From an uncultured Dehalococcoidia bacterium (GTDB lineage Bacteria > Chloroflexota > Dehalococcoidia > SZUA-161): a stretch of DNA of 64,000 bases. Location of the stretch: assembly GCA_964574685.1 (NCBI GenBank), contig CAZNOI010000005.1:1493-65492 (forward strand). Reading direction: 5' to 3'. How positions within the stretch are numbered: the first letter of the stretch is position 1; each line of letters begins with the position of its first letter. A program made the position numbers and the translations under genes. Positions 1 to 55,751 of the stretch are shown piece after piece. The notes beneath the pieces were generated by a model that did no database searches, was not told where the DNA came from, and saw only the letters and a list, made by a program, of their open reading frames with translations.

Positions 1-479
1 TTGAGTCGCGGCGGTGGCCCGAAGTCCACGTCCAGGTTCTCGACAGCCTGCTGCCGCAGAGCGCGGAGAAGCTTCTGGAGGCTCTCGTAGTCGCCGTCCG
101 CGAGTGAGGACATCGCTTCCTGGACGACGCTCTTCATGACTGCGACGCCCTTGCTGCAGTACTCCTGCCCCTTGCTGGTGAGCTTGATTTCGGTGAACGG
201 CCGACCTTTCCTCTTGGGTATCCGGGTTACCAGACCGTCTTGCTCCATTCTGTTTATGAGTCCTGTGACGCTCTGGCTCTCCCGTGAGAGGAATCTGGCG
301 ATCTCGGCGGGGATGAGAGGACCGGGGTGCTCCCTGCACGTCCATAGAACGGCAACCTTCTCGGGAGTTAGACCTACTCTGGCTAGCCTGGTCTCGGCCA
401 CCCTGTCCAGGAGAGACCACGTCTGTCGCAGGAGCGCCCAGCTTGTCAACGCTGCATCGTTGAACATCAAATCATACAT
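1..479 (-). CDS. MarR-family transcriptional regulator (3' end runs off the window)
   Basis: Not in the ORF track; translated by hand. ATG at 479 has a GGAGG RBS. Sequence MYDLMFNDAALTSWALLRQTWSLLDRVAETRLARVGLTPEKVAVLW...PAEIARFLSRESQSVTGLINRMEQDGLVTR...IKLTSKG matches the MarR winged-helix pattern. Frame is open to position 1. Confidence 0.85.
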   Translation of the reverse strand, partial: MYDLMFNDAALTSWALLRQTWSLLDRVAETRLARVGLTPEKVAVLWTCREHPGPLIPAEIARFLSRESQSVTGLINRMEQDGLVTRIPKRKGRPFTEIKLTSKGQEYCSKGVAVMKSVVQEAMSSLADGDYESLQKLLRALRQQAVENLDVDFGPPPRL

Positions 480-609
480 TGGTATACCTCCCGGCTGACT
501 GCTTCTCCGAAGTGACTCTTCTGCGATACGCTTCGCGGCAAATCAACAGTAATATGCAACTGTATACACGAGTGTGATTAAGGAATCGCTTAAGAACATG
601 AAGGGCCAG

Positions 610-636
610 TTACAAGAAGCTTACAATCGGATTACA
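610..636. promoter_or_regulatory. Three TTACA direct repeats with 11-bp period; candidate OmpR/PhoB-type operator
   Basis: TTACA at 610, 621 and 632, upstream of the marR-like gene and just past the stop of an OmpR-family regulator. Confidence 0.4.
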
Positions 637-663
637 GAGACGGATTGCCGGAACGATTCCGGT

Positions 664-1371
664 TCAACATGCCTTGGAGTGACCGCTGCGCGTCGGTCTC
701 GCGAGGAAGTAGCCCGTGCCCGCCTTGGTGAGGATGATCTGTGGGTGGCTGGGGTTTGACTCCAGCTTCTCACGAAGACGCCTTATGTGTACTCTCAGGC
801 TCTCGATAGAGCCAGGGTAGTCTTCCCCCCATACCTCTTCTGCAAGAGCAGAGTGCGTGGCGACACGGCCCGCGTTTCTGATCAGGCGCTGGACTATGTG
901 TGCCTCGATAGCTGTGAGATTGACTTCCCTGTCCTCCAAGGTCAGTTGCCGTGTGGACGGATTGAAGCGAAGAGGGCCAAACTCCAGAGGCGTCTCCTCG
1001 GCGTACCCGGTCCTGTCCCGCATGCGTACGTTGATGCGTGCCAGCAGTTCCAGTTGGCCGCAGGGCTTGACAATGTAGTCGTCGGCGCCCCATTCAAGGC
1101 CCTTGACTATGTCGGCCTCGTCAGCCTTGACCGTCAGTATGATGATGGGGACTGAGGAGAACCGCCTTACTTCCTTTAGCACCTGGAACCCGCTTATGTC
1201 TGGCAGGCCGAGGTCGAGTACCATCATGTCCATATCCTCGGTGCTGGCCAGTTCGACACCCTTCTTGCCGAGATGGGTAGTAGTGATCTGGGCCTTGGGC
1301 CACCGGATCTGGATAGCAAGCGAGATGGACTCCACAATCTCGGGATCGTCTTCGACGATGAGTACCTTCAA
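664..1371 (-). CDS. OmpR/PhoB-family response regulator
   Basis: Receiver domain (VLIVEDD, VLDLGLPD, GADDYIVKP) plus winged-helix output (SLRVHIRRLREKLE...IILTKAGTGY). Confidence 0.95.
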   Translation of the reverse strand: MKVLIVEDDPEIVESISLAIQIRWPKAQITTTHLGKKGVELASTEDMDMMVLDLGLPDISGFQVLKEVRRFSSVPIIILTVKADEADIVKGLEWGADDYIVKPCGQLELLARINVRMRDRTGYAEETPLEFGPLRFNPSTRQLTLEDREVNLTAIEAHIVQRLIRNAGRVATHSALAEEVWGEDYPGSIESLRVHIRRLREKLESNPSHPQIILTKAGTGYFLARPTRSGHSKAC

Positions 1372-46426: not shown

Positions 46427-46580
46427 TTGACGTTTACATTACAGAGCTTAACATATCGTTGCGTTGGCGTTACAATTGCATGGGCAATCGACTTCACCAG
46501 TGTTCCCTCGACTGGGGGAAGGCTCGTCGGTTCGGCGAACCAACGCGTGGGGTTGACAATGAGATCGAAAAGCCGATAAT
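46427..46580 (+). promoter_or_regulatory. Two candidate tandem sigma70 promoters for the tubulin-like operon
   Basis: TTGACG-16 bp-TAACAT at 46427-46454 and TTGACA-16 bp-GATAAT at 46553-46580. Confidence 0.4.
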
Positions 46581-47085
46581 GGTTGGGCAGTCCGTAGCAG
46601 TCCGCTGCGGACTGAGAATATGAGTCACGAGTAGCTGTCAGTCCGTGCGGTTGTTTCGGCACTGCCTGTCGAACTTGGGCCGGGCCTGAGACAGCGGGTC
46701 TGTCATTTTGCGCCAGCAACCAAGAGGGTGGCTTCGGTGAACTGCTATGCAGCGCTTGTGTATGACTGCGGGGGCACCGGCGCTCGGACAAGGATTCGAG
46801 GCTGCACAGGGAATAGTACTTCCGAACCCAGTACCATCTCCCCATAGGTACCCACCCGAAAGGGCTATTGCTGGTAACTGACAGGTTTGCTAAGGTCTGA
46901 CCGGGAGAAGCGCATTGCCTGCCGGTGCGCACAGGTACGCACAGGGACCCAGCCCGTTCGGTGCCGGAGACCTCTTTCGGGAAAAGGCGATTCAGGGGGC
47001 GCCACAGGGGAGTGAACGGTCAGAGGGCAACAACCGCAGGCCTGATACTGACGGCTCGATGTGATCCCAGCGAGAAGGAGTGTCA

Positions 47086-48261
47086 GTGATGTCCTGCTTA
47101 CGTCTTTCCCGACTTGCCAGACTCGTCCTGGTGGCCATGTTCCTGCTCACGGCGCTGTACGCTGTTCCGCTTGCCAGCGCCCAGGAACCCGCGCTCTCGG
47201 TGGACCTCAAGTCTTACACTATCCGTGACGTCAGCAACACGGATGTCACCGGCGAGCTTCTCCTCGCGGGAGATACCTATACAGTCTACTTCGACGTCGA
47301 GGTGAGCACCGAGTTGCCGGACACCAGGCTGGCGCTGTCCACCTCGCTGGAGAAAGCGGAGGATGTTTACTGGTCTCTTGAGAATGAGGACGAGTACACC
47401 GGAGTCGATACCGGAAGCTGGCAGCCCGGCCAGTCCTCGATCGAGTTCAATGCCGCTAAGGGCGTTGCCAACTTCGTCCTGACAGGAACGGTGCCGATCA
47501 ACTACACAACCGAAGTGCTCGCGAATGGCGACAGCGAGGTCACGCTGCATCGCGTCAAGACCATACCCATGGTCACCCTCTCCCTGGGCACCGAAGGTGA
47601 GCTGCTCGACCAGCGGACATCCGAAGTCGTCGACCAGAATATCCTTGCCTATCGGCAGATACTTACGGAGAAGAAGAGCCTTCTGCAGGGCGCTTCAGCC
47701 GATCCCACGTACTCCGACCTGGCGCAGGACATACTGGACATAGCCGAGACCCAGGGGGATCAGGGCTTTGTCGCGACTGCTCGCGCCCTGCTCAACACGT
47801 TGCCGGGCAGCCCGTCGGAGTTCCCCGGCGTCCAAGAATACGAGCAGGCGAAGTCCGCGAAGCTGAACGTTCTCCAGTCAACAGAGACCCAGCCTGAGTA
47901 CGAACAGCTCGTTTCTGAAATGATCGCACTGGCGGACGACCTCAATGCGGCAGGGTATTCGAACAACGCTATCGACGTGCTCGAAGCGCTGCCCGGCTCG
48001 GCTTTGGAGTACCCCGAGCCAATCGCCGGCGACTCATCTTTCATTTACATAATCGTCATCGTGATAGTGGTAATACTGCTGATTGCCGTGCTGGCGCTGC
48101 TGCTGAGGGCTCGGTCCAATGTCAGTTTTGTGAAACAACAGGTCGATGAGGAAATCGGGAGACTCGATGTACTCCTGGTCAGAATAGGCAGAGTAGACAA
48201 GCAGCTTGCACGTGATGTCGAGCAGGTTAAGGAGCAGCTCGAGAGGCTCAGCGGGAGGTGA
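47086..48261 (+). CDS. Secreted protein with C-terminal TM anchor and short cytoplasmic coiled coil
   Basis: Signal peptide ending LASA-QEP, internal tandem helical repeat, TM IYIIVIVIVVILLIAVLALLL, heptad-like tail. GTG/ATG start at 47086/47089 after GAAGGAG. Confidence 0.8.
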   Translation: MMSCLRLSRLARLVLVAMFLLTALYAVPLASAQEPALSVDLKSYTIRDVSNTDVTGELLLAGDTYTVYFDVEVSTELPDTRLALSTSLEKAEDVYWSLENEDEYTGVDTGSWQPGQSSIEFNAAKGVANFVLTGTVPINYTTEVLANGDSEVTLHRVKTIPMVTLSLGTEGELLDQRTSEVVDQNILAYRQILTEKKSLLQGASADPTYSDLAQDILDIAETQGDQGFVATARALLNTLPGSPSEFPGVQEYEQAKSAKLNVLQSTETQPEYEQLVSEMIALADDLNAAGYSNNAIDVLEALPGSALEYPEPIAGDSSFIYIIVIVIVVILLIAVLALLLRARSNVSFVKQQVDEEIGRLDVLLVRIGRVDKQLARDVEQVKEQLERLSGR

Positions 48262-48265
48262 AGCA

Positions 48266-50956
48266 ATGGCTCGCTCTGTGACCTACAATTCTTCCCTGCA
48301 ACTGGTTGGCTTGGGTGGAACGGGCGTCAACATAATCGAAGCCTTCATCAATAATCGCAAGGCCCTGTTGCCGATCCTGAAGAAGGAGGGCATCAGGGTG
48401 TCGTGTCTGGCCATAGACGTCGCGGACCACGACATCCAGAGTCTCGAGGAGTCGGGCCGGGACCTCGCAGACCAGCTCAGGGAAGAGGGCATCCCGTCGG
48501 ACAAGCTGTGGCTTACTGCGAAGTCAGTCAAGTTCCCCACTCCGGAAAGCATGTTCGATTTCATAAACAAATACCCCGAGTACCTGAGTCGGGAAGGCGT
48601 GGAGATAGTCGGGGAATACCAACCCTGGCTGTCGTCATCAATGGATATACCGCCTCTCGCAGGGGGCGTGGGCAGGAGACGGGCGCTCTCCAAGGCGATC
48701 TACGGCCTGAACTACCATCATCTCAGACTGCTCGACAGCTACATGGATGGGTTCAAGGAGCACCTCTTCACTTCGACGGTTCAGCCTGTTGTCTTCGTCA
48801 TCTATGGTCTCGGCGGCGGCAGCGGGAGCGGCATGGTACTGGACTTCACCCGGCACTTGAGGAAGAAGATAGGCAGCGGCGTGCCCATAATCGGGATCTG
48901 CGTGCTGCCATGTGCGGGCGACGACCCACCCGCAAAGGGCACATCAGCGTACGGTTCGCTCGTAGAGGCCGGAACGATGATCGACCGGCAGAGCAACCTG
49001 AAGACCATGCAGCAATTCGGAGGGCCGTACGAGAACCCGTTCAGCGCCTTCCTGGTGATGCCGCTGGGCCCTGCCTACAGCAAGACGGCGAGTCTCATCG
49101 ACGCCAAGCGAATCATCGATGACGCCATAGTCGACGTTCTGACGAACTCGATGAACTTCGACCTCGCTGACCTGCTCAGCAACATCGGCTCGAACATCGA
49201 CATGGAAGGCAACTGGCTCCATCTGCTCTCCACTCTGAGGATAAGCTTCCCGGTCACGGAGTTCATAGAGGTGACCAAGGTGTATCTTGAGCGGCTGGAC
49301 AAGGTCCGGGCGCTTCGCCGCGAGAAGCGGGAGGTTTTCGGCGGCACACATCCTACGGAGACGGGTGGTGTCAACAAGGTACTCAGCATCTGCAACCACG
49401 ACCTCAAGGAGATCTACAGGCAGGTGCTCATCGAGTCGGGCAAGTACAACGCGGAGACATTCGACGACGCCGTCGAGAGTATGGTGAACGCGGACCGGTC
49501 GGTCGAGGCCGAGTACATTATGCACTTGAAGGGCGTCGACGATTCGATCAAGACCCAGGTGAACGAACTGGGCCGACCTGTCATGGCCATTGGACTGGAT
49601 GCGCCCGATGGCACTGTCGAATCGATGATTCGCAAGCAGGCGTCCCGGCTTATCGAACTGGGTGCGTGCATCTCCAAGAGCTATGGCGAGTTCCTCGACG
49701 AGGTGGACGACATCCTCGAAGGCCTGAGGGATACGCTTCCCAGCGCTCAGCAGTTGACAGCGAAGGAAGTCCAGCTGGTCAACGACGTCTCCGAGCTTGC
49801 GGCAATGATACGGGACTACCTCGGCAGTCTCCGGTTGTACCTGGAGACCAAGAAGCTCGCCGACAAGCTGCAGAAGCAGTTGCAGAAGGCCGAGGAGACG
49901 GAATCCCGGCAGATGCAACTGGGCAGGGTCGAGCAGATTATCAACCCTGAACTGGTTGTCCTCTTCTCGCTGCTTTCTTCCATGTTCACGCCCGTGAGCA
50001 CTCAGCTCAAGAGCATGGACTCGCTGATGGTCAACTGTCGCAGGGTCCGGCGTGTTCTCGAGGACGAAGCTTCGCGCATCAACACGGAGGTCGACAATCT
50101 TGAGTTGAATCGCAAGGCGAAGCAGGTGGAGCGGAACAGGGCCAACAAGGAGATGAGGGGTATCAGGGTCGGGTTCCTGGCCCGGGGAAAGAGGCAGCTC
50201 TGGGAGGAAAGGAGCAAGAAGCTGGGGAGAGCTCTCTCCTCAGTCGACGAGAGCCTCCGGCTGCTTGAAGACGATCAGGCCAAGGTGCATGACAAGATAG
50301 CCGTCTATTCGGGAATTGAGCGAAGGTTCGAGGTGAACTCCGAGTACCGGAAGTTGCTCACCAGCATAGCGGAGCTGTCGAATCGGCACTACGAGAAGAT
50401 GAACGAGATGGTTAGGGACAAGGGCTTCTACGACCGGACAGCCGAACTGACGGAAGACGTGCAGCTCCGGCTGATGCAGAAGATCCTGATGGAGGACGAG
50501 GCCTCTCTGTCCAGCGAGAACATACTGAATGAGATCATGGACAAGGACTACCTGAAGGAGTACCTGTCCAGCGTGCTGGGCATATTCAGGGTCCCGGGCA
50601 TCCTGGGAGTAACACCGGAGTACAAGACAGACTACATATGGTTCGCCGTAGTGTCACCGCGAGGAATCTGGGACCATGACCTTACGGCCGATGTGCGGGC
50701 CACATTCTCGGGATACGTGAAGTCCGATGCGTCCAGGAGCATAGCGATACGGGAGATAGACTCCGCCGACCCATGGACGGTGCGTTTCATGGTTATCGCC
50801 GCAAAGGGAGTCCCCCGGATGCTCGAGTGCTTCGCCGAGATGAAGCACATATACGACCAGTCCACGGAGGAGGAGAGACTGCTCGCTCACTCCTTCCTTC
50901 TTGAGCAAGGCGTACACCCGTCGCGCGAGAAGGAACCCGCCGAGAACGCCACGTAG
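48266..50956 (+). CDS. Tubulin/FtsZ-superfamily GTPase with long coiled-coil region (Tubulin_2/FtsZ-like), 896 aa
   Basis: T1 LVGLGGTG, T3 GGVGRRR, signature GLGGGSGSG, T7-like NFDLAD. Start at ATG 48266 after GGGAGGTG. Confidence 0.85.
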   Translation: MARSVTYNSSLQLVGLGGTGVNIIEAFINNRKALLPILKKEGIRVSCLAIDVADHDIQSLEESGRDLADQLREEGIPSDKLWLTAKSVKFPTPESMFDFINKYPEYLSREGVEIVGEYQPWLSSSMDIPPLAGGVGRRRALSKAIYGLNYHHLRLLDSYMDGFKEHLFTSTVQPVVFVIYGLGGGSGSGMVLDFTRHLRKKIGSGVPIIGICVLPCAGDDPPAKGTSAYGSLVEAGTMIDRQSNLKTMQQFGGPYENPFSAFLVMPLGPAYSKTASLIDAKRIIDDAIVDVLTNSMNFDLADLLSNIGSNIDMEGNWLHLLSTLRISFPVTEFIEVTKVYLERLDKVRALRREKREVFGGTHPTETGGVNKVLSICNHDLKEIYRQVLIESGKYNAETFDDAVESMVNADRSVEAEYIMHLKGVDDSIKTQVNELGRPVMAIGLDAPDGTVESMIRKQASRLIELGACISKSYGEFLDEVDDILEGLRDTLPSAQQLTAKEVQLVNDVSELAAMIRDYLGSLRLYLETKKLADKLQKQLQKAEETESRQMQLGRVEQIINPELVVLFSLLSSMFTPVSTQLKSMDSLMVNCRRVRRVLEDEASRINTEVDNLELNRKAKQVERNRANKEMRGIRVGFLARGKRQLWEERSKKLGRALSSVDESLRLLEDDQAKVHDKIAVYSGIERRFEVNSEYRKLLTSIAELSNRHYEKMNEMVRDKGFYDRTAELTEDVQLRLMQKILMEDEASLSSENILNEIMDKDYLKEYLSSVLGIFRVPGILGVTPEYKTDYIWFAVVSPRGIWDHDLTADVRATFSGYVKSDASRSIAIREIDSADPWTVRFMVIAAKGVPRMLECFAEMKHIYDQSTEEERLLAHSFLLEQGVHPSREKEPAENAT

Positions 50957-51018: not shown

Positions 51019-53352
51019 ATGGAAGACACTCTGCCTCAATTGAAGACAGAGCAGCAGTCCGAGGAGGAGCTGCTCCAGCGTCAGTGCCCGGTCGCGAAGA
51101 GCGAGGAGAGGTTCAGAGAGTTGCTTCTCAGGGCAACCATGTCTCTCTCCTTCCTGACCGCCGGTCTCATCGTCTACTACCTGTTGCCCTTCTATCCCTC
51201 GTCAATGTCCGTGTTCTTCGCCATCATGCTGGCGGTCATCGCCTTCCGCTGGCCGTCGGCGGCCCTCGCGGTCTTGCTGGTGTTGGCCGCGCCCGCGTAC
51301 GCCTATCAACTCGGTGGCGCGATGTGGGCGCTGGGCGTGATGCTGGCTCTCGCAGCGGTGCTGCCCTTCTGCGTGAGCAGACTGCCAGGAGCCATAATCG
51401 GATGCGTAGCGGGCACGGCGGCAGGGGTGTTGGTCCTCAGTCCGTACTTTCTGCTCTCGCTGCCACTACTGGTGGGGGCGACCCTGTTTCGACTTAAGGG
51501 TTCGTCCATGGCGGGCCTGTGGGCGGTACTGATGTTCCTGGCATTCCACCTGCCGTTTCTGAGCGTTGCGCAATCGACCGGTACGCAGGCCGGAGTGGTG
51601 CCCCTGTTGACGTCGGTGGACTACGCGCAGAGGCCCTCACTGGAGTACCTGGGGCTGGAGCCGCTCAAGGCTGCCTTCGGAGAAGCGCCCGCAGGCTTCG
51701 GTGACCTCTCGGGCTTCTCGGCCTATTTCGTTGAGGGCTGGGGCGGCATTGCACTGGTCCTGACACTGGTGCTGGCGGTCATCGGCGTCCCGACGTTGCT
51801 CAACCTGTCGCGGAGGGTGAGGCACAGGGGCATGCTGACGAGAGGCATGATGCCGGTCCTGACGCTGCTGGCCGTTGAGTTGGTCTTCCTGGTTCCGCTC
51901 CAGTTGCTGGACAGGCCGCTTCGGTACTACACCGGATTCAACCAATGGGACAACATAGCTGTACTCACGGCGATAGTGCTGTTCATGGGCGGTATGGGCT
52001 TCGCCGTCGAGTTCTGGCTGAGCCGGCGGGACCTGCGAGTGAACCTGGCGGGGCAGGTCTCAGCACTCACGGACGAGCTGGAGATACTGCTTGAAGACGC
52101 AAGGCAGGGCCTGCAGCAGGTGGCCTACGTATGTCGGGGCAGGGACCTCAGCGACGAGAAGGCCGCTGTTTCTCAGAGTGAGGAGAAGGTGGCGATGACT
52201 GTCGAGAGCCTGAGCGCCCTTTCGGTGCCCAGGCTCGAGGTGACTCTCAGCGAGTTCTCGAGTATGAGGAAGCAACTGCGCGATACCAAGGTGCAGCTAC
52301 AGTTGAAGCTACTAGGCCACCTTGACGATTGCCGGCGTTCGTACAAGGCGACTGTGGAGGGCGCGAGGCTGTTGGGCATGCCGGTCGCCCGTGACGCAAT
52401 CGGCCCCGACGTGTTCTCACCCGATGGGGATGACTACGAGAGCGTGCTCCTCGAGCAGGAAGAGCTGAACAAGGCCTTCTCGGACCTTGCGAGCGAGCTT
52501 GTAGCTGCAGGGGAGATGCTGGCCGAAATCGTCAAGGAGGAGATCGACCCCGAGTTTTCCCTCACCACGATAGACATCGGCCGTGGCTTCCTGGAACAGG
52601 GTAGATACGAGGAGGCCGCGCGGACGATCCTGGAGGACCTCCAGATTATCGACGGCAGAATCGAGAGCCCCATTGCTGAGCTGGCGACCAAAGTGGTAGT
52701 GATGGCAAGCGCCCTGCGCGACGTCACCTCCAGCCATATCATTCCGATGTTTGAGGCACTGGGAGACACGGATTCTGTCGAAAGGTATCGTCAAGTGATT
52801 GCCGACCTGGATGAGATCGCCAGATCCGTACAAGGATCTCGCACATTGGCCGACCTCATCGGCATCGTCGAGCAGAGCAGAAGACTGGCGGATACCGCCA
52901 TATTGACGGTCACGGAACTCAGACACAAATCGCGTTCCCTGGAGTCCGCAAACGACCGGCTGTGTCCGGTCAGATACAACTGGGGCAAGAACAGCCACAT
53001 GACCGGTGAGGTGCAGCAGTTGCTCCACACCATCGAATCCGAATCGGCGGGCCTGACCATCAGCAGCCGCTTCAGCGTGATCGAGAACGCTGTGCAGGCC
53101 GCCGAGCAGCAGGCCAGGATCATACGGAAGTACAGCCAGGCCAGCGAGTTCCTCATCAACTACCCCAATGTCGAATATGTCATCGAGGAGAAGCTGAAGG
53201 GCGACGGGGGAGTAGTCAGGTCTGATGTCCCGGTGAACGCCAAGTACGCCGCCGAGTACCTGAAGCTCTTCGCGGCGAAGCACTACGAGTACGTGGTGTT
53301 TGACCCACGTACGGCCACTCTCAAGCAGAAGTCCGGGAAGAAGACGGGCTAG
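51019..53352 (+). CDS. Multi-pass membrane protein with long cytoplasmic helical/coiled-coil domain
   Basis: About ten hydrophobic helices in the first 340 aa, then about 430 aa of amphipathic helices. Confidence 0.8.
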   Translation: MEDTLPQLKTEQQSEEELLQRQCPVAKSEERFRELLLRATMSLSFLTAGLIVYYLLPFYPSSMSVFFAIMLAVIAFRWPSAALAVLLVLAAPAYAYQLGGAMWALGVMLALAAVLPFCVSRLPGAIIGCVAGTAAGVLVLSPYFLLSLPLLVGATLFRLKGSSMAGLWAVLMFLAFHLPFLSVAQSTGTQAGVVPLLTSVDYAQRPSLEYLGLEPLKAAFGEAPAGFGDLSGFSAYFVEGWGGIALVLTLVLAVIGVPTLLNLSRRVRHRGMLTRGMMPVLTLLAVELVFLVPLQLLDRPLRYYTGFNQWDNIAVLTAIVLFMGGMGFAVEFWLSRRDLRVNLAGQVSALTDELEILLEDARQGLQQVAYVCRGRDLSDEKAAVSQSEEKVAMTVESLSALSVPRLEVTLSEFSSMRKQLRDTKVQLQLKLLGHLDDCRRSYKATVEGARLLGMPVARDAIGPDVFSPDGDDYESVLLEQEELNKAFSDLASELVAAGEMLAEIVKEEIDPEFSLTTIDIGRGFLEQGRYEEAARTILEDLQIIDGRIESPIAELATKVVVMASALRDVTSSHIIPMFEALGDTDSVERYRQVIADLDEIARSVQGSRTLADLIGIVEQSRRLADTAILTVTELRHKSRSLESANDRLCPVRYNWGKNSHMTGEVQQLLHTIESESAGLTISSRFSVIENAVQAAEQQARIIRKYSQASEFLINYPNVEYVIEEKLKGDGGVVRSDVPVNAKYAAEYLKLFAAKHYEYVVFDPRTATLKQKSGKKTG

Positions 53353-53360
53353 CTCTGGAT

Positions 53361-54317
53361 GTGAAGATGAGTGAAGAAGACCTGCAGTGCTCCGGGAACG
53401 CGGAGCGGACCCTGGCTGTGTTGAAGAACGTTGGTCTCGATGGCAAAGGGAAGGGGCGGCTCCTTCTCACCGGACAGACCATAGCCTATGAGGCGAGAAA
53501 TGGGCTCTTCTCACGCACGAAGACTGAGCTGACGATCGATCTAGCGGCGGTGTCTTCCGCTGTCAGGGATGAGGCTTCGAACGAGCTGGTGGTCGAGTGG
53601 CTGGACGACCAGGAATACTGCTCCGTCACGTTCAGATTGCCAAAAGGGCACGCGGCAGAATTCGGACAGGCGCTGAATGAGCTCCTTGAGCAAATGAGAG
53701 CGGACGAGGAGCTGGAGAGGCGGAAGGCTGAGTACGTAGATTTCCTGTGGGGAACCGCCTACGATGTCTGGGTTCTGACAGGTCTCTTGATCGAGACTGT
53801 TGAGCAACTCACGCTCGACGACTGGGCCGCGGTGGACGGACTCGCGGAACAGATCAATGAATCTGTGAGAAACGGACTCTCGCTCCCTCGGGTTTCTGTG
53901 CACTCGCTGGCCGACTCGCTGGCGAGCCGTGATGGGCCGCTAGTGCTCCGTGAGGTAAGCGACATCCTCAGGGCCATAGGCAGTACGCTGAACGACGAGC
54001 TGTGCCCTGCCGATGAGTGGGGTGAGCTGGTACTTGACGAAGGATTGGGAATCAAGTGGCGGGACATCCGCTTCATCTACCTGTTCGCGCTGAGCCACAG
54101 GCTTCTTCCTCTGGCGCGCAGGCTGTGCAACCGTGAGGAGCTTGAGAATACGATGCATCGGCTGCAGCGATTCGGGCTGGTGCTCAGCGAGACCCTAATG
54201 GAACAGGCAAACATATGTGATATGCAGGACGCCGAACTGGAGGACCTGGCAGCAGGCGTGGATGAGACGGCGTACGAGGTCGAACAGTCACTCAAGGAAA
54301 GGGCCGGGGTCGCCTAG
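53361..54317 (+). CDS. Hypothetical protein with PH/GRAM-like N-terminus and helical C-terminus
   Basis: GRLLLTGQTIAYE..GLFS...LTIDLAAVSS beta pattern followed by a coiled-coil stretch. Confidence 0.7.
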   Translation: MKMSEEDLQCSGNAERTLAVLKNVGLDGKGKGRLLLTGQTIAYEARNGLFSRTKTELTIDLAAVSSAVRDEASNELVVEWLDDQEYCSVTFRLPKGHAAEFGQALNELLEQMRADEELERRKAEYVDFLWGTAYDVWVLTGLLIETVEQLTLDDWAAVDGLAEQINESVRNGLSLPRVSVHSLADSLASRDGPLVLREVSDILRAIGSTLNDELCPADEWGELVLDEGLGIKWRDIRFIYLFALSHRLLPLARRLCNREELENTMHRLQRFGLVLSETLMEQANICDMQDAELEDLAAGVDETAYEVEQSLKERAGVA

Positions 54318-55751
54318 ATGGCATTGCAGCAGATAGGGAGCGAAGGCTTGTCCTGCCCCAGGGGCCACGAGAACAGAGGTGGCGCCGAATGGTGCACTGC
54401 GTGTGGGATGCCGGTCATTGACTTCGATGAGGAAATGGACCGGGTTCTCCGTCTGCTGGCTGGCTGGGAACGGCACACCAGGTTCGTCAAGGAGCGCGTG
54501 TTCATCGGCGTGGGAGGTCAGGGCACCCGTTTGGTCTCGTGCTTCTGCCGGTACTGGGCCGAGTACCTGAAATCCTCGGAGTACCTGCTCATCGATTCCT
54601 CCCCGGAAATCCACAGCTTCGCATCGTCCGTGGCCTCGACCAAGACCGGGGGAGATGAGCCCGCCAGGGTCCCAAGGCGTCACCAGATGCCCGGATCACA
54701 GAGCAGGCAACTTGGCTATTTCGGCCTCGGGGAGTTCCTGGCCCAGGCGGACGATACTCTCAACGATACCCTAATGAAGTGTGGGGTAAGGCCTGCGAGC
54801 AGCAAGCAGCTTGTGCTGACGGTATCAGCGCTCGGCGGAGGGACCGGCGCCGGTGTAAGTCCTAACGTCCTGCAGCGCGTCAGGAGCCTGAATCCAAACT
54901 GCCGAAACGTGATTATCGCAATAATGCCCGGTGACGACGAACCGGACAGCGCGCACTTCAATGCCTACTGCTCGCTGTCCAGGTTCATCAGGTCGGAGGC
55001 GGGTCCCCTCGCCGATATGGTGCTCTTGGTCGATCATGATAGGCTCATGAGACTCAGGGGCGTGGATTCCAGGGGCGAGGAGATGGCAAACGATTCCCTG
55101 GTGTCCCACATGATCGCCGTACTGACCGGCGGAGCGGCCGAGCTGGGGAAAGCCCAGACGGACCCGGGCTACCTTGCCAGGATGAGCAGATCGATGGGCA
55201 TACATGCCTTCGTTCCGTGCCTGGCTGTGGGCCGGAGTCTGGAGATATTCGGCAGTCTCACAAACATACTGGAGAGCGCTCTCGCCTGTCCACTGGCGCC
55301 GATCGACAGGGAGTCCATAGCACTGTCCTTCGTGCTTGTCCAGGTCCCGGAAAGACTTGTCCAGTCCATGCCGGAGGAAAGGCTTCGGGCAGAGCTGAAC
55401 AAGTGGAACAAGGAGAGATTCCCAAACCTGCGCGGCGGCGCCATTCAGTTCATGCACTCGAATCGCGGTTCGGACCGAATCGATGTATGCTTCCTGCTGG
55501 GCGGCACGAAGCTGGAGATCGCCGCCGGAAGGGCCAAAGAAGGCTTTGAGAGCTTCAAGTCAGTTGTGGAAAGTGATTCCTGGGCGGAGGAATACTCGTC
55601 GCCCGGAGCTGTCTTCGAAGTGGACCAGGCTGTCCGATGGTATGACGGCAGGCTCGACGACACTGGAACGCGCACCGAGGGCGTGTACGTCTGGACCAAC
55701 CAGAGTGAGAAGTCTGCTCATGGTCAGGAATCATCCTCTCCAGTAGACTAG
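54318..55751 (+). CDS. Zinc-ribbon plus tubulin/FtsZ (CetZ-like) GTPase
   Basis: CPRGH...CTACG ribbon, T1 FIGVGGQG, signature ALGGGTGAG, IAIMP, VLLVDHD, tubulin-type C-terminal domain. Confidence 0.85.
   Translation: MALQQIGSEGLSCPRGHENRGGAEWCTACGMPVIDFDEEMDRVLRLLAGWERHTRFVKERVFIGVGGQGTRLVSCFCRYWAEYLKSSEYLLIDSSPEIHSFASSVASTKTGGDEPARVPRRHQMPGSQSRQLGYFGLGEFLAQADDTLNDTLMKCGVRPASSKQLVLTVSALGGGTGAGVSPNVLQRVRSLNPNCRNVIIAIMPGDDEPDSAHFNAYCSLSRFIRSEAGPLADMVLLVDHDRLMRLRGVDSRGEEMANDSLVSHMIAVLTGGAAELGKAQTDPGYLARMSRSMGIHAFVPCLAVGRSLEIFGSLTNILESALACPLAPIDRESIALSFVLVQVPERLVQSMPEERLRAELNKWNKERFPNLRGGAIQFMHSNRGSDRIDVCFLLGGTKLEIAAGRAKEGFESFKSVVESDSWAEEYSSPGAVFEVDQAVRWYDGRLDDTGTRTEGVYVWTNQSEKSAHGQESSSPVD

Follow-up and report, generated by a model that had tools for sequence, protein, structure and literature searches.

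The window analyzed here is a 64,000-nucleotide (nt) stretch of contig CAZNOI010000005.1 from an uncultured Dehalococcoidia bacterium. On its plus strand, positions 48266-50956 form an open reading frame (ORF) of 896 codons, the second of five tightly packed same-strand genes that are separated, in order, by gaps of 4, 62, 8, and 0 nt. The frame begins with an ATG at 48266, 7 bases downstream of GGGAGGTG, ends with a stop at 50956, and encodes a protein of 896 amino acids (aa), referred to as P0002. Judged by sequence, this protein is a member of the FtsZl1/Pfam Tubulin_2 branch of the tubulin-FtsZ superfamily, a kind of protein that is already known. The predicted models support a complete two-domain tubulin fold whose C-terminal domain is interrupted, after its first strand, by a helical module of about 450 residues. 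The following features were assigned to the gene and its product, the structural ones from AlphaFold2 (AF2) models:

48266..50956, plus strand: tubulin-like GTPase gene with inserted stalk (P0002), 896 aa; ORF, Pfam PF13809, about 100 full-length homologs
48290..49150, plus strand: GTPase domain up to the core helix H7, residues 9-295; AF2 secondary structure, motifs in 35 homologs
49154..49171, plus strand: T7 loop NFDLAD, residues 297-302; alignment of 35
49217..49246, plus strand: strand 318-327, read as S7, the first C-terminal-domain strand, just before the insertion; DSSP assignment of the AF2 model, with S7 inferred from the order of elements
49253..50605, plus strand: predicted inserted all-helical stalk, residues 330-780, about 15 helices; AF2 model, absent from the 561-588-aa relatives
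49994..50326, plus strand: long hairpin of helices 577-631 and 639-687, the least conserved part of the protein; AF2 models, conservation
50159..50194, plus strand: hairpin turn GIRVGFLARGKR, residues 632-643, basic, hydrophobic, and Gly/Pro-rich; between the longest helix pair
50606..50917, plus strand: terminal alpha/beta piece, residues 781-884, read as S8, H10, S9, S10, and the following helices; structural alignments

Several observations place the 896-aa protein in the superfamily: (i) the Pfam Tubulin_2 profile (PF13809) passed its cut-off of 27 with 49.8 bits (residues 13-222, E 3.9e-13), the match spanning profile positions 2-214 of 356 only, (ii) the Tubulin profile (PF00091) gave a sub-threshold match at residues 154-218, and (iii) the sequence contains a glycine-rich T1, the T4 signature, and the T7 acidic residues (NxDxxD/E) after H7. 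NCBIfam and PADLOC returned nothing for this protein. A single-sequence search of the Protein Data Bank (PDB) sequences gave no tubulin match, and a family profile searched against the same sequences matched CetZ1 at the T4 region (E 0.0044). We collected about 100 full-length homologs of 870-950 aa and 31-78% identity, all with the same domain layout, from Dehalococcoidia, other Chloroflexota, Nitrososphaerales/Thaumarchaeota, and Bathyarchaeia.

Statements on conservation refer to alignment A1, which contains 35 homologs. Both T1 (GLGGTG, 15-20) and T3 (AGGVGRRRA, 132-140) are invariant or nearly so. In T4 (GLGGGSGSG, 181-189), the residues G181, G183-185, G187, and S188 are invariant, and the core GGGSGSG at 183-189 reads GGGTGSG in many homologs. 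The T7 loop directly follows the predicted helix 277-295; its residues F298 and D299 do not vary, and every one of the 35 sequences has D or E at position 302. Unlike CetZ, FtsZ, TubZ, and tubulin, the protein carries a family-specific insert at approximately residues 88-131, between T2 and T3.

The FtsZl1 proteins were described by Makarova and Koonin in 2010 as having an FtsZ-like N-terminal domain, an extended coiled coil, and a C-terminal domain (PMC2875224); a later survey equates them with Pfam Tubulin_2 (PMC9871819). Our literature searches found no experimental (bench) study of this family. The 896-aa protein shares with FtsZl1 the three-part layout, the occurrence in both bacteria and archaea and alongside ordinary FtsZ, and the membrane-associated neighbors. 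However, in the 2010 description the T6-H7 region was not identified, and the C-terminal domain was mostly helical and unrelated to FtsZ_C (PMC2875224), whereas in the present protein T7 is plain, and the terminal domain is predicted to be of the alpha/beta type and to complete the tubulin fold.

The full-length AF2 model, built from A1, has a mean predicted local distance difference test (pLDDT) score of 86.2 and a predicted TM score (pTM) of 0.75. Its elements follow in the order of a six-stranded alpha/beta GTPase domain up to helix 277-295, T7, a short helix 300-307, strand 318-327, about 15 helices over 330-780, and finally strand 791-797, helix 804-817, strands 826-832 and 838-848, and helices 856-864 and 868-873. 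The model thus predicts the elements that define the two-domain fold, namely a Rossmann-like GTPase domain, H7, and a four-stranded C-terminal domain. From the order H7, T7, H8, S7, H9, S8, H10, S9, S10, we infer that the insertion sits in the connection after S7. In tubulin, this connection holds the M-loop, which makes lateral contacts.

The whole model was aligned with solved structures by VIA-align. The best comparison, with CetZ 3zid_B, has a Z of 26.6 and superimposes 309 of 342 residues with a root-mean-square deviation (rmsd) of 3.2 A, covering 8..870 of the model and 1..343 of the chain. CetZ1 and CetZ2 align with Z 25.2-25.7, tubulins and BtubB with Z of about 23, and FtsZ chains with Z of about 22.5. 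The groups stop at different places in the model: FtsZ chains at 847-849, exactly where the predicted strand 838-848 ends, CetZ chains at 868-870, after helices 856-873, and tubulins and BtubB slightly further, at 886-888. FtsZ cores finish with strand S10, CetZ has one helix more, and tubulins have H11-H12. The predicted end points agree with this topology of the superfamily. A shape search of the ESM Atlas gave an FtsZ cluster (358 aa; TM-by-row 0.71, 321 residues aligned, query 1-893) and a CetZ cluster (391 aa; TM-by-row 0.70, query 13-873). The participation of both ends of the model was seen by VIA-align and not by Foldseek, which for the whole model aligned only about 335 columns (TM-by-target 0.4-0.5, rmsd 6-9 A) and gave no ranges.

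Because whole CetZ, FtsZ, and tubulin chains align using both ends of the model, the modeling supports a reading in which residues 781-884 complete the tubulin C-terminal domain and pack on the GTPase domain. With CetZ, FtsZ, TubZ, and tubulin (3zid, 4b45, 4b46, 6y1v, 4ei7, 5o09, and others), the protein shares the two-domain fold (Z 22-27) and T1, T3, T4, and T7, but it differs from them by an identity of only 9-18% and by the approximately 450 residues inside the C-terminal domain. It also lacks an FtsZ-type C-terminal linker or peptide.

The older, sequence-based picture would extend an FtsZ-like N-terminal domain C-terminally by a coiled coil and take the terminal domain as unrelated, without any split tubulin domain. 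It draws on the 2010 description, in which no similarity of the FtsZl1 C-terminus to the C-terminal domains of FtsZ or tubulin was seen (PMC2875224), and on our profile of residues 781-884, which found nothing among PDB sequences even at E 10; because of the latter result, the relationship to the tubulin C-terminal domain is a structural one only. We nevertheless consider this picture very improbable, since whole FtsZ, CetZ, and tubulin chains are covered only when the terminal piece is included, the two halves are directly joined in stalk-less relatives (see below), and a match at the start plus the end has also been noted in Borg and haloarchaeal relatives (bioRxiv 10.1101/2024.11.05.622173).

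The stalk-less relatives were found with the same C-terminal profile (781-884). Searched against 1.84 billion cluster representatives, it detected 45 proteins, nearly all of them from the same family of about 900 aa or fragments of its members; because only 45 cluster representatives were found, we regard the protein and its homologs as a small, distinct subfamily. Among the 45 are two shorter proteins, P0146 (561 aa) and P0136 (588 aa). In BLASTP comparisons, residues 11-282 of P0002 align with 19-305 of P0146 (E 6e-36) and residues 776-883 with 396-503 (E 2e-10); P0136 aligns likewise (11-282 at E 4e-24 and 776-883 at E 3e-12). The two matched halves are about 90 residues apart in the short relatives versus about 490 in the 896-aa protein, and on these alignments the approximately 400 extra residues are the stalk. 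A longer C-terminal profile, extended upstream to residue 700, placed the point at which homology resumes at residue ~770 and gave no match in the stalk-less relatives beyond it. Thus, both the whole-fold alignments and the short relatives with their join of about 90 residues argue that the tubulin fold is interrupted by an inserted helical region.

At locus L014, stalk-less relatives of 510 and 561 aa (L014:4802-6334 and L014:6661-8346) form a tandem Tubulin_2-type pair with a 99-aa ORF between them. This pair adjoins cobW, and at a second locus the stalk-less gene has an adjacent Tubulin_2 gene and CbtA/CbtB cobalt-transporter neighbors.

The split start-plus-end arrangement was not first seen here, because the 2024 preprint on Borg and haloarchaeal proteins of about 1050 aa notes in passing a partial match to CetZ2 (4b45) that involves both termini, which are separated by a long coiled coil (bioRxiv 10.1101/2024.11.05.622173). 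The 896-aa protein is like them in this arrangement, but they are about 150 residues longer and have another host range. The only comparison of ours that bears on the relationship to these proteins is the match to an Atlas Tubulin_2+GYF_2 cluster (TM 0.46). The present work adds the relatives without a stalk, the finding that the C-terminal piece is rare, the fold searches with the stalk alone, and the statistics of the tip described below.

A first-pass annotation, made from the DNA sequence alone, had proposed a tubulin-like GTPase with a helical middle and a terminal alpha/beta domain. This holds in the ORF, in the motifs T1, T3, T4, and T7, in the AF2 model, and in the approximately 100 homologs. 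Its suggestion that the last part alternates strand and helix corresponds to the elements from strand 791-797 through helix 868-873 of the model. The idea of a stalk inserted into the tubulin fold is borne out by the whole-chain structural alignments and by the stalk-less relatives, and the superpositions on CetZ, FtsZ, and tubulin support a terminal domain that resembles the tubulin C-terminal domain and is predicted to pack on the GTPase domain, rather than an unrelated one. The motif NFDLAD had been placed near residue 350; it actually lies at 297-302, about 50 residues lower. The same annotation had called for AlphaFold models and fold searches domain by domain; in the present analysis, the full-length model gave the tubulin fold with both of its ends taking part, and the stalk alone matched no solved fold above the helical background.

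The stalk-only model (residues 328-790, alignment A2) has a pLDDT of 88.6 and a pTM of 0.83. In the AF2 models, the stalk is a multi-helix bundle that ends in one long hairpin with arms of about 50-55 residues each, which would be about 7-8 nm long if straight. The coiled coil of about 400 residues proposed in the first-pass annotation is therefore correct as to a long helical region, and incorrect as to size and kind: the region has approximately 450 residues and is predicted to be a bundle plus one hairpin, not a two-stranded coil. The basic hydrophobic turn that had been noticed at the apparent tip does lie between the longest helices, and its character is kept in all 35 homologs.

This turn coincides with a local dip in pLDDT. 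Across the 35 homologs, K/R make up 31% and D/E 7% of its residues, whereas the arms are charge-neutral (20% and 21%). In each of the 35 sequences, the turn is basic and contains at least one large hydrophobic residue, usually Phe, plus Gly/Pro, often in the form ..GF...GKKK. The tip of the most distant member is 43% identical and its arms 15%, and in P0088 and P0089 of the Bathyarchaeia clade (A1 columns for residues ~600-660) about 45 residues have been lost symmetrically from both arms with the basic/hydrophobic turn kept. The mean fraction of the majority residue is 0.64 in the head (GTPase domain), 0.60 in the terminal piece 781-884, 0.59 in the return segment 688-780, and 0.38 in the hairpin arms. 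A site that contacts an acidic surface, for example a membrane, would be expected to have such a conserved turn. A membrane-binding tip is our working hypothesis, and both the conservation of the turn and the two flanking membrane-protein genes fit it.

Just after the long hairpin, at residues 689-700 (50330-50365 of the window), the block EVNSxYRKLL is nearly invariant (S692, Y694, and R695). It recalls the YRKLLEGE helix-termination motif of intermediate filaments, and the family profile matches the 2B segment of keratin 5 (E 0.021) with the motif aligned; the likeness is probably a coincidence.

Fold searches with the stalk alone gave no relative. Foldseek matched no solved structure at E <= 0.001, the best being AhlC at E 0.04, and the best hit of an exhaustive VIA-align search, at Z 11.4, was a generic helical hairpin. 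Helical models reach a Z of about 13 by chance, and since all matches fall under this level, we claim no relationship for the stalk. The candidates rejected on this ground (Z 9.4-10.7) were ClyA-family toxins (AhlC, XaxA, and YaxB), Snf7/Shrub/CHMP4B, PspA, and F-BAR; the BBSome is also among the generic hairpins and bundles matched.

By layout, the protein resembles dynamin-like proteins (BDLP and EHD): all have a GTPase head and a long helical arm with basic and hydrophobic residues at its end. In EHD2, the lipid-binding site at the tip of the helical domain consists of a Phe and a lysine cluster, which we take as a lead only. However, the head here is a tubulin-type GTPase, not a P-loop one with G1-G4, and no dynamin or BDLP chain is among the 50 stalk matches listed. 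The comparison is therefore one of layout only, and the 896-aa protein is not a member of the dynamin family. Beyond analogy, neither the type of GTPase nor the stalk matches listed support the likeness to dynamin-like proteins.

The four genes that form the cluster together with the 896-aa protein gene are the following:

47080..48261, plus strand: upstream membrane-protein gene, 393 aa, with its stop 4 nt before the tubulin-like gene
51019..53352, plus strand: polytopic membrane-protein gene, 777 aa, downstream of the tubulin-like gene
53361..54317, plus strand: soluble operon protein, 318 aa, of no known family in Pfam/NCBIfam searches
54318..55751, plus strand: second tubulin-like protein, 477 aa, with an N-terminal zinc-ribbon-like CxxxH...CxxC; PF00091 at E 3.6e-7, below cut-off, and family alignment A5

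The 393-aa protein is predicted to have an N-terminal signal or anchor, a domain on the outside, one transmembrane helix (324-342), and a 51-aa helical cytoplasmic tail. For the 777-aa protein, about nine transmembrane helices (35-330) followed by about 440 cytoplasmic residues are predicted; no Pfam, NCBIfam, or PADLOC family matched it, and an ESM Atlas feature search returned only its own unnamed family. In the family of the 477-aa protein (A5), C13 and H17 are invariant, C26 and C29 are present in at least 90% of the rows, and the block GRSLEIFG..NILES is strongly conserved, while some members, P0194 and the copy from a thaumarchaeal contig (L004) among them, have a degraded T4 signature. 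NCBIfam gave no family for four of the five cluster proteins tested. A predicted complex of the full 896-aa protein with the 51-aa upstream tail scored 0.00 against a mark of 0.32; run without controls, this speaks neither for nor against binding. Promoter-like sites were found only 5' of the first cluster gene, as strong sigma-70-like matches at 46427-46580. They lie about 500-650 nt before that gene, which would leave a long leader, and a terminator-like hairpin is found at 46681-46702.

Comparison of eight bacterial and archaeal loci (the window, L004, L006, and L009-L013) revealed that in all eight the gene is flanked by (i) an upstream single-transmembrane protein with a conserved cytoplasmic tail and (ii) a downstream polytopic protein with 7-9 transmembrane helices and a large cytoplasmic domain. 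Five of these loci (L009-L013) come from further genomes of the same class and repeat this flanking pattern. The thaumarchaeal contig L004 encodes homologs of all five window proteins in the same cluster; the gene for its 318-aa homolog (L004:15145-16128) reads in the opposite direction and lies between those for the polytopic membrane protein and the second tubulin-like protein. At L006, a more distant archaeal locus, the first three genes are retained. The second tubulin-like gene was identified in only two of the eight loci, the window and L004. The cytoplasmic tail of the upstream protein is conserved across the two domains of life. Judging from the predicted gene products, a membrane-protein gene cluster is common to some Dehalococcoidia and archaea. 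At the stalk-less locus L014, the neighbors are another Tubulin_2 gene and small soluble proteins, and no membrane protein is predicted to be adjacent; this one readable locus gives a weak hint that membrane partners accompany the stalk.

In FtsZl1 operons, a vWA protein, often together with a P-loop GTPase, an OmpA-like protein, or a Ser/Thr kinase, is present in the majority, and a role in membrane remodeling was predicted for FtsZl1 from these vWA, GTPase, OmpA, and kinase neighbors (PMC2875224). Unlike most of these operons, the present cluster has four partners without vWA, P-loop GTPase, OmpA, or kinase domains in Pfam/NCBIfam searches, and a second tubulin-like gene instead.

The genome carries two FtsZ-sized Tubulin_2/FtsZ-like frames elsewhere, which makes it unlikely that the 896-aa protein is the division FtsZ. 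Plasmid segregation of the TubZ type was considered and set aside in view of the lack of a gene for a DNA-binding adaptor, the chromosomal loci, and the membrane-protein partners.

The distribution of the gene is patchy: it was found in 7 of 150 other sampled genomes of the class and in 0 of 6 from the same order. The thaumarchaeal homolog P0035 is 53% identical to the window protein versus 43-51% for most homologs from the same class, and in a quick tree the archaeal and Chloroflexota clades interleave. On both grounds, the sequences suggest that the module has been exchanged between bacteria and archaea. The patchiness and the apparent transfer between the domains would also be features of an accessory conflict or defense module, in which the GTPase would act as a sensor or scaffold coupled to membrane-damaging partners. 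Such a function appears quite improbable to us: over the five proteins, PADLOC gave only one marginal match (the 318-aa protein, E 0.0026), there is no nuclease, protease, or NADase domain, and three loci have housekeeping neighbors (the his operon, CTP synthase, an AOR-family gene, and a two-component system).

We propose, with a probability of roughly 60%, that the protein forms a GTP-dependent head-to-tail polymer whose stalks tie it to the membrane, and that it serves in shaping the membrane or envelope. The head would assemble as FtsZ, CetZ, TubZ, and tubulin do, possibly as a heteropolymer with the 477-aa second tubulin-like protein, and the T7 loop of one subunit would complete the active site of the next. 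The stalks would project sideways from the polymer and anchor it to the membrane on its cytoplasmic side via the tip, via the cytoplasmic parts of the membrane proteins, or via both. The likely output would be shaping or remodeling of the membrane or envelope and not cell division, because the genome has two ordinary FtsZ-sized genes.

A more elaborate version of this proposal is tentative, and we give it the standing of a conjecture. Here, a tubulin-fold GTPase would work like dynamin or EHD: a GTP-driven polymer of two different tubulin-like subunits, with arms at the position of the M-loop, would grip the membrane via the basic and hydrophobic tip and the two membrane proteins, and the whole would be a self-contained shaping machine exchanged between wall-less Dehalococcoidia and TACK archaea.

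The protein could also be a nucleotide-dependent switch rather than a filament. The heads would only dimerize, with themselves or with the 477-aa paralog, and the stalk would relay the nucleotide state to the polytopic protein, gating transport or secretion. A polytopic partner with 7-9 transmembrane helices and a large cytoplasmic domain is indeed present in every locus, the return segment 688-780 is as conserved as the head (0.59 vs 0.64), as expected of a coupling element, and the degraded T4 in some of the second tubulin-like proteins recalls a pair of a catalytic and a non-catalytic subunit. The conserved acidic residues of T7 fit a filament and a switch alike. We consider a switch unlikely, since the membrane partner matches no transporter family and polymerization is an established property of the superfamily; to our knowledge, every characterized tubulin/FtsZ member polymerizes.

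Four points weigh against the proposed membrane-tethered polymer: (i) all structural evidence comes from predicted models, and the insertion point was placed by the succession of secondary-structure elements rather than by superposition at the residue level, (ii) the stalk has no recognizable relative that would carry a function, (iii) the vWA, P-loop GTPase, OmpA, and kinase partners of most FtsZl1 operons are not in this cluster, and (iv) the patchy distribution (7 of 150) and the apparent exchange between bacteria and archaea would fit an accessory or conflict role as well.

Within the tubulin/FtsZ superfamily, no branch is more divergent than FtsZl1. The conserved tip, together with the conserved tail of the upstream protein, offers defined targets for mutagenesis, and the stalk-less relatives are a natural control construct. 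Under the split-fold model, if correct, the head retains all that is needed for GTP hydrolysis coupled to polymerization, and the arm would leave it in the connection after S7, the site of the lateral-contact M-loop of tubulin. Such an architecture would be a design for coupling a tubulin-type filament to the membrane without adaptors of the FtsA, ZipA, or SepF type.

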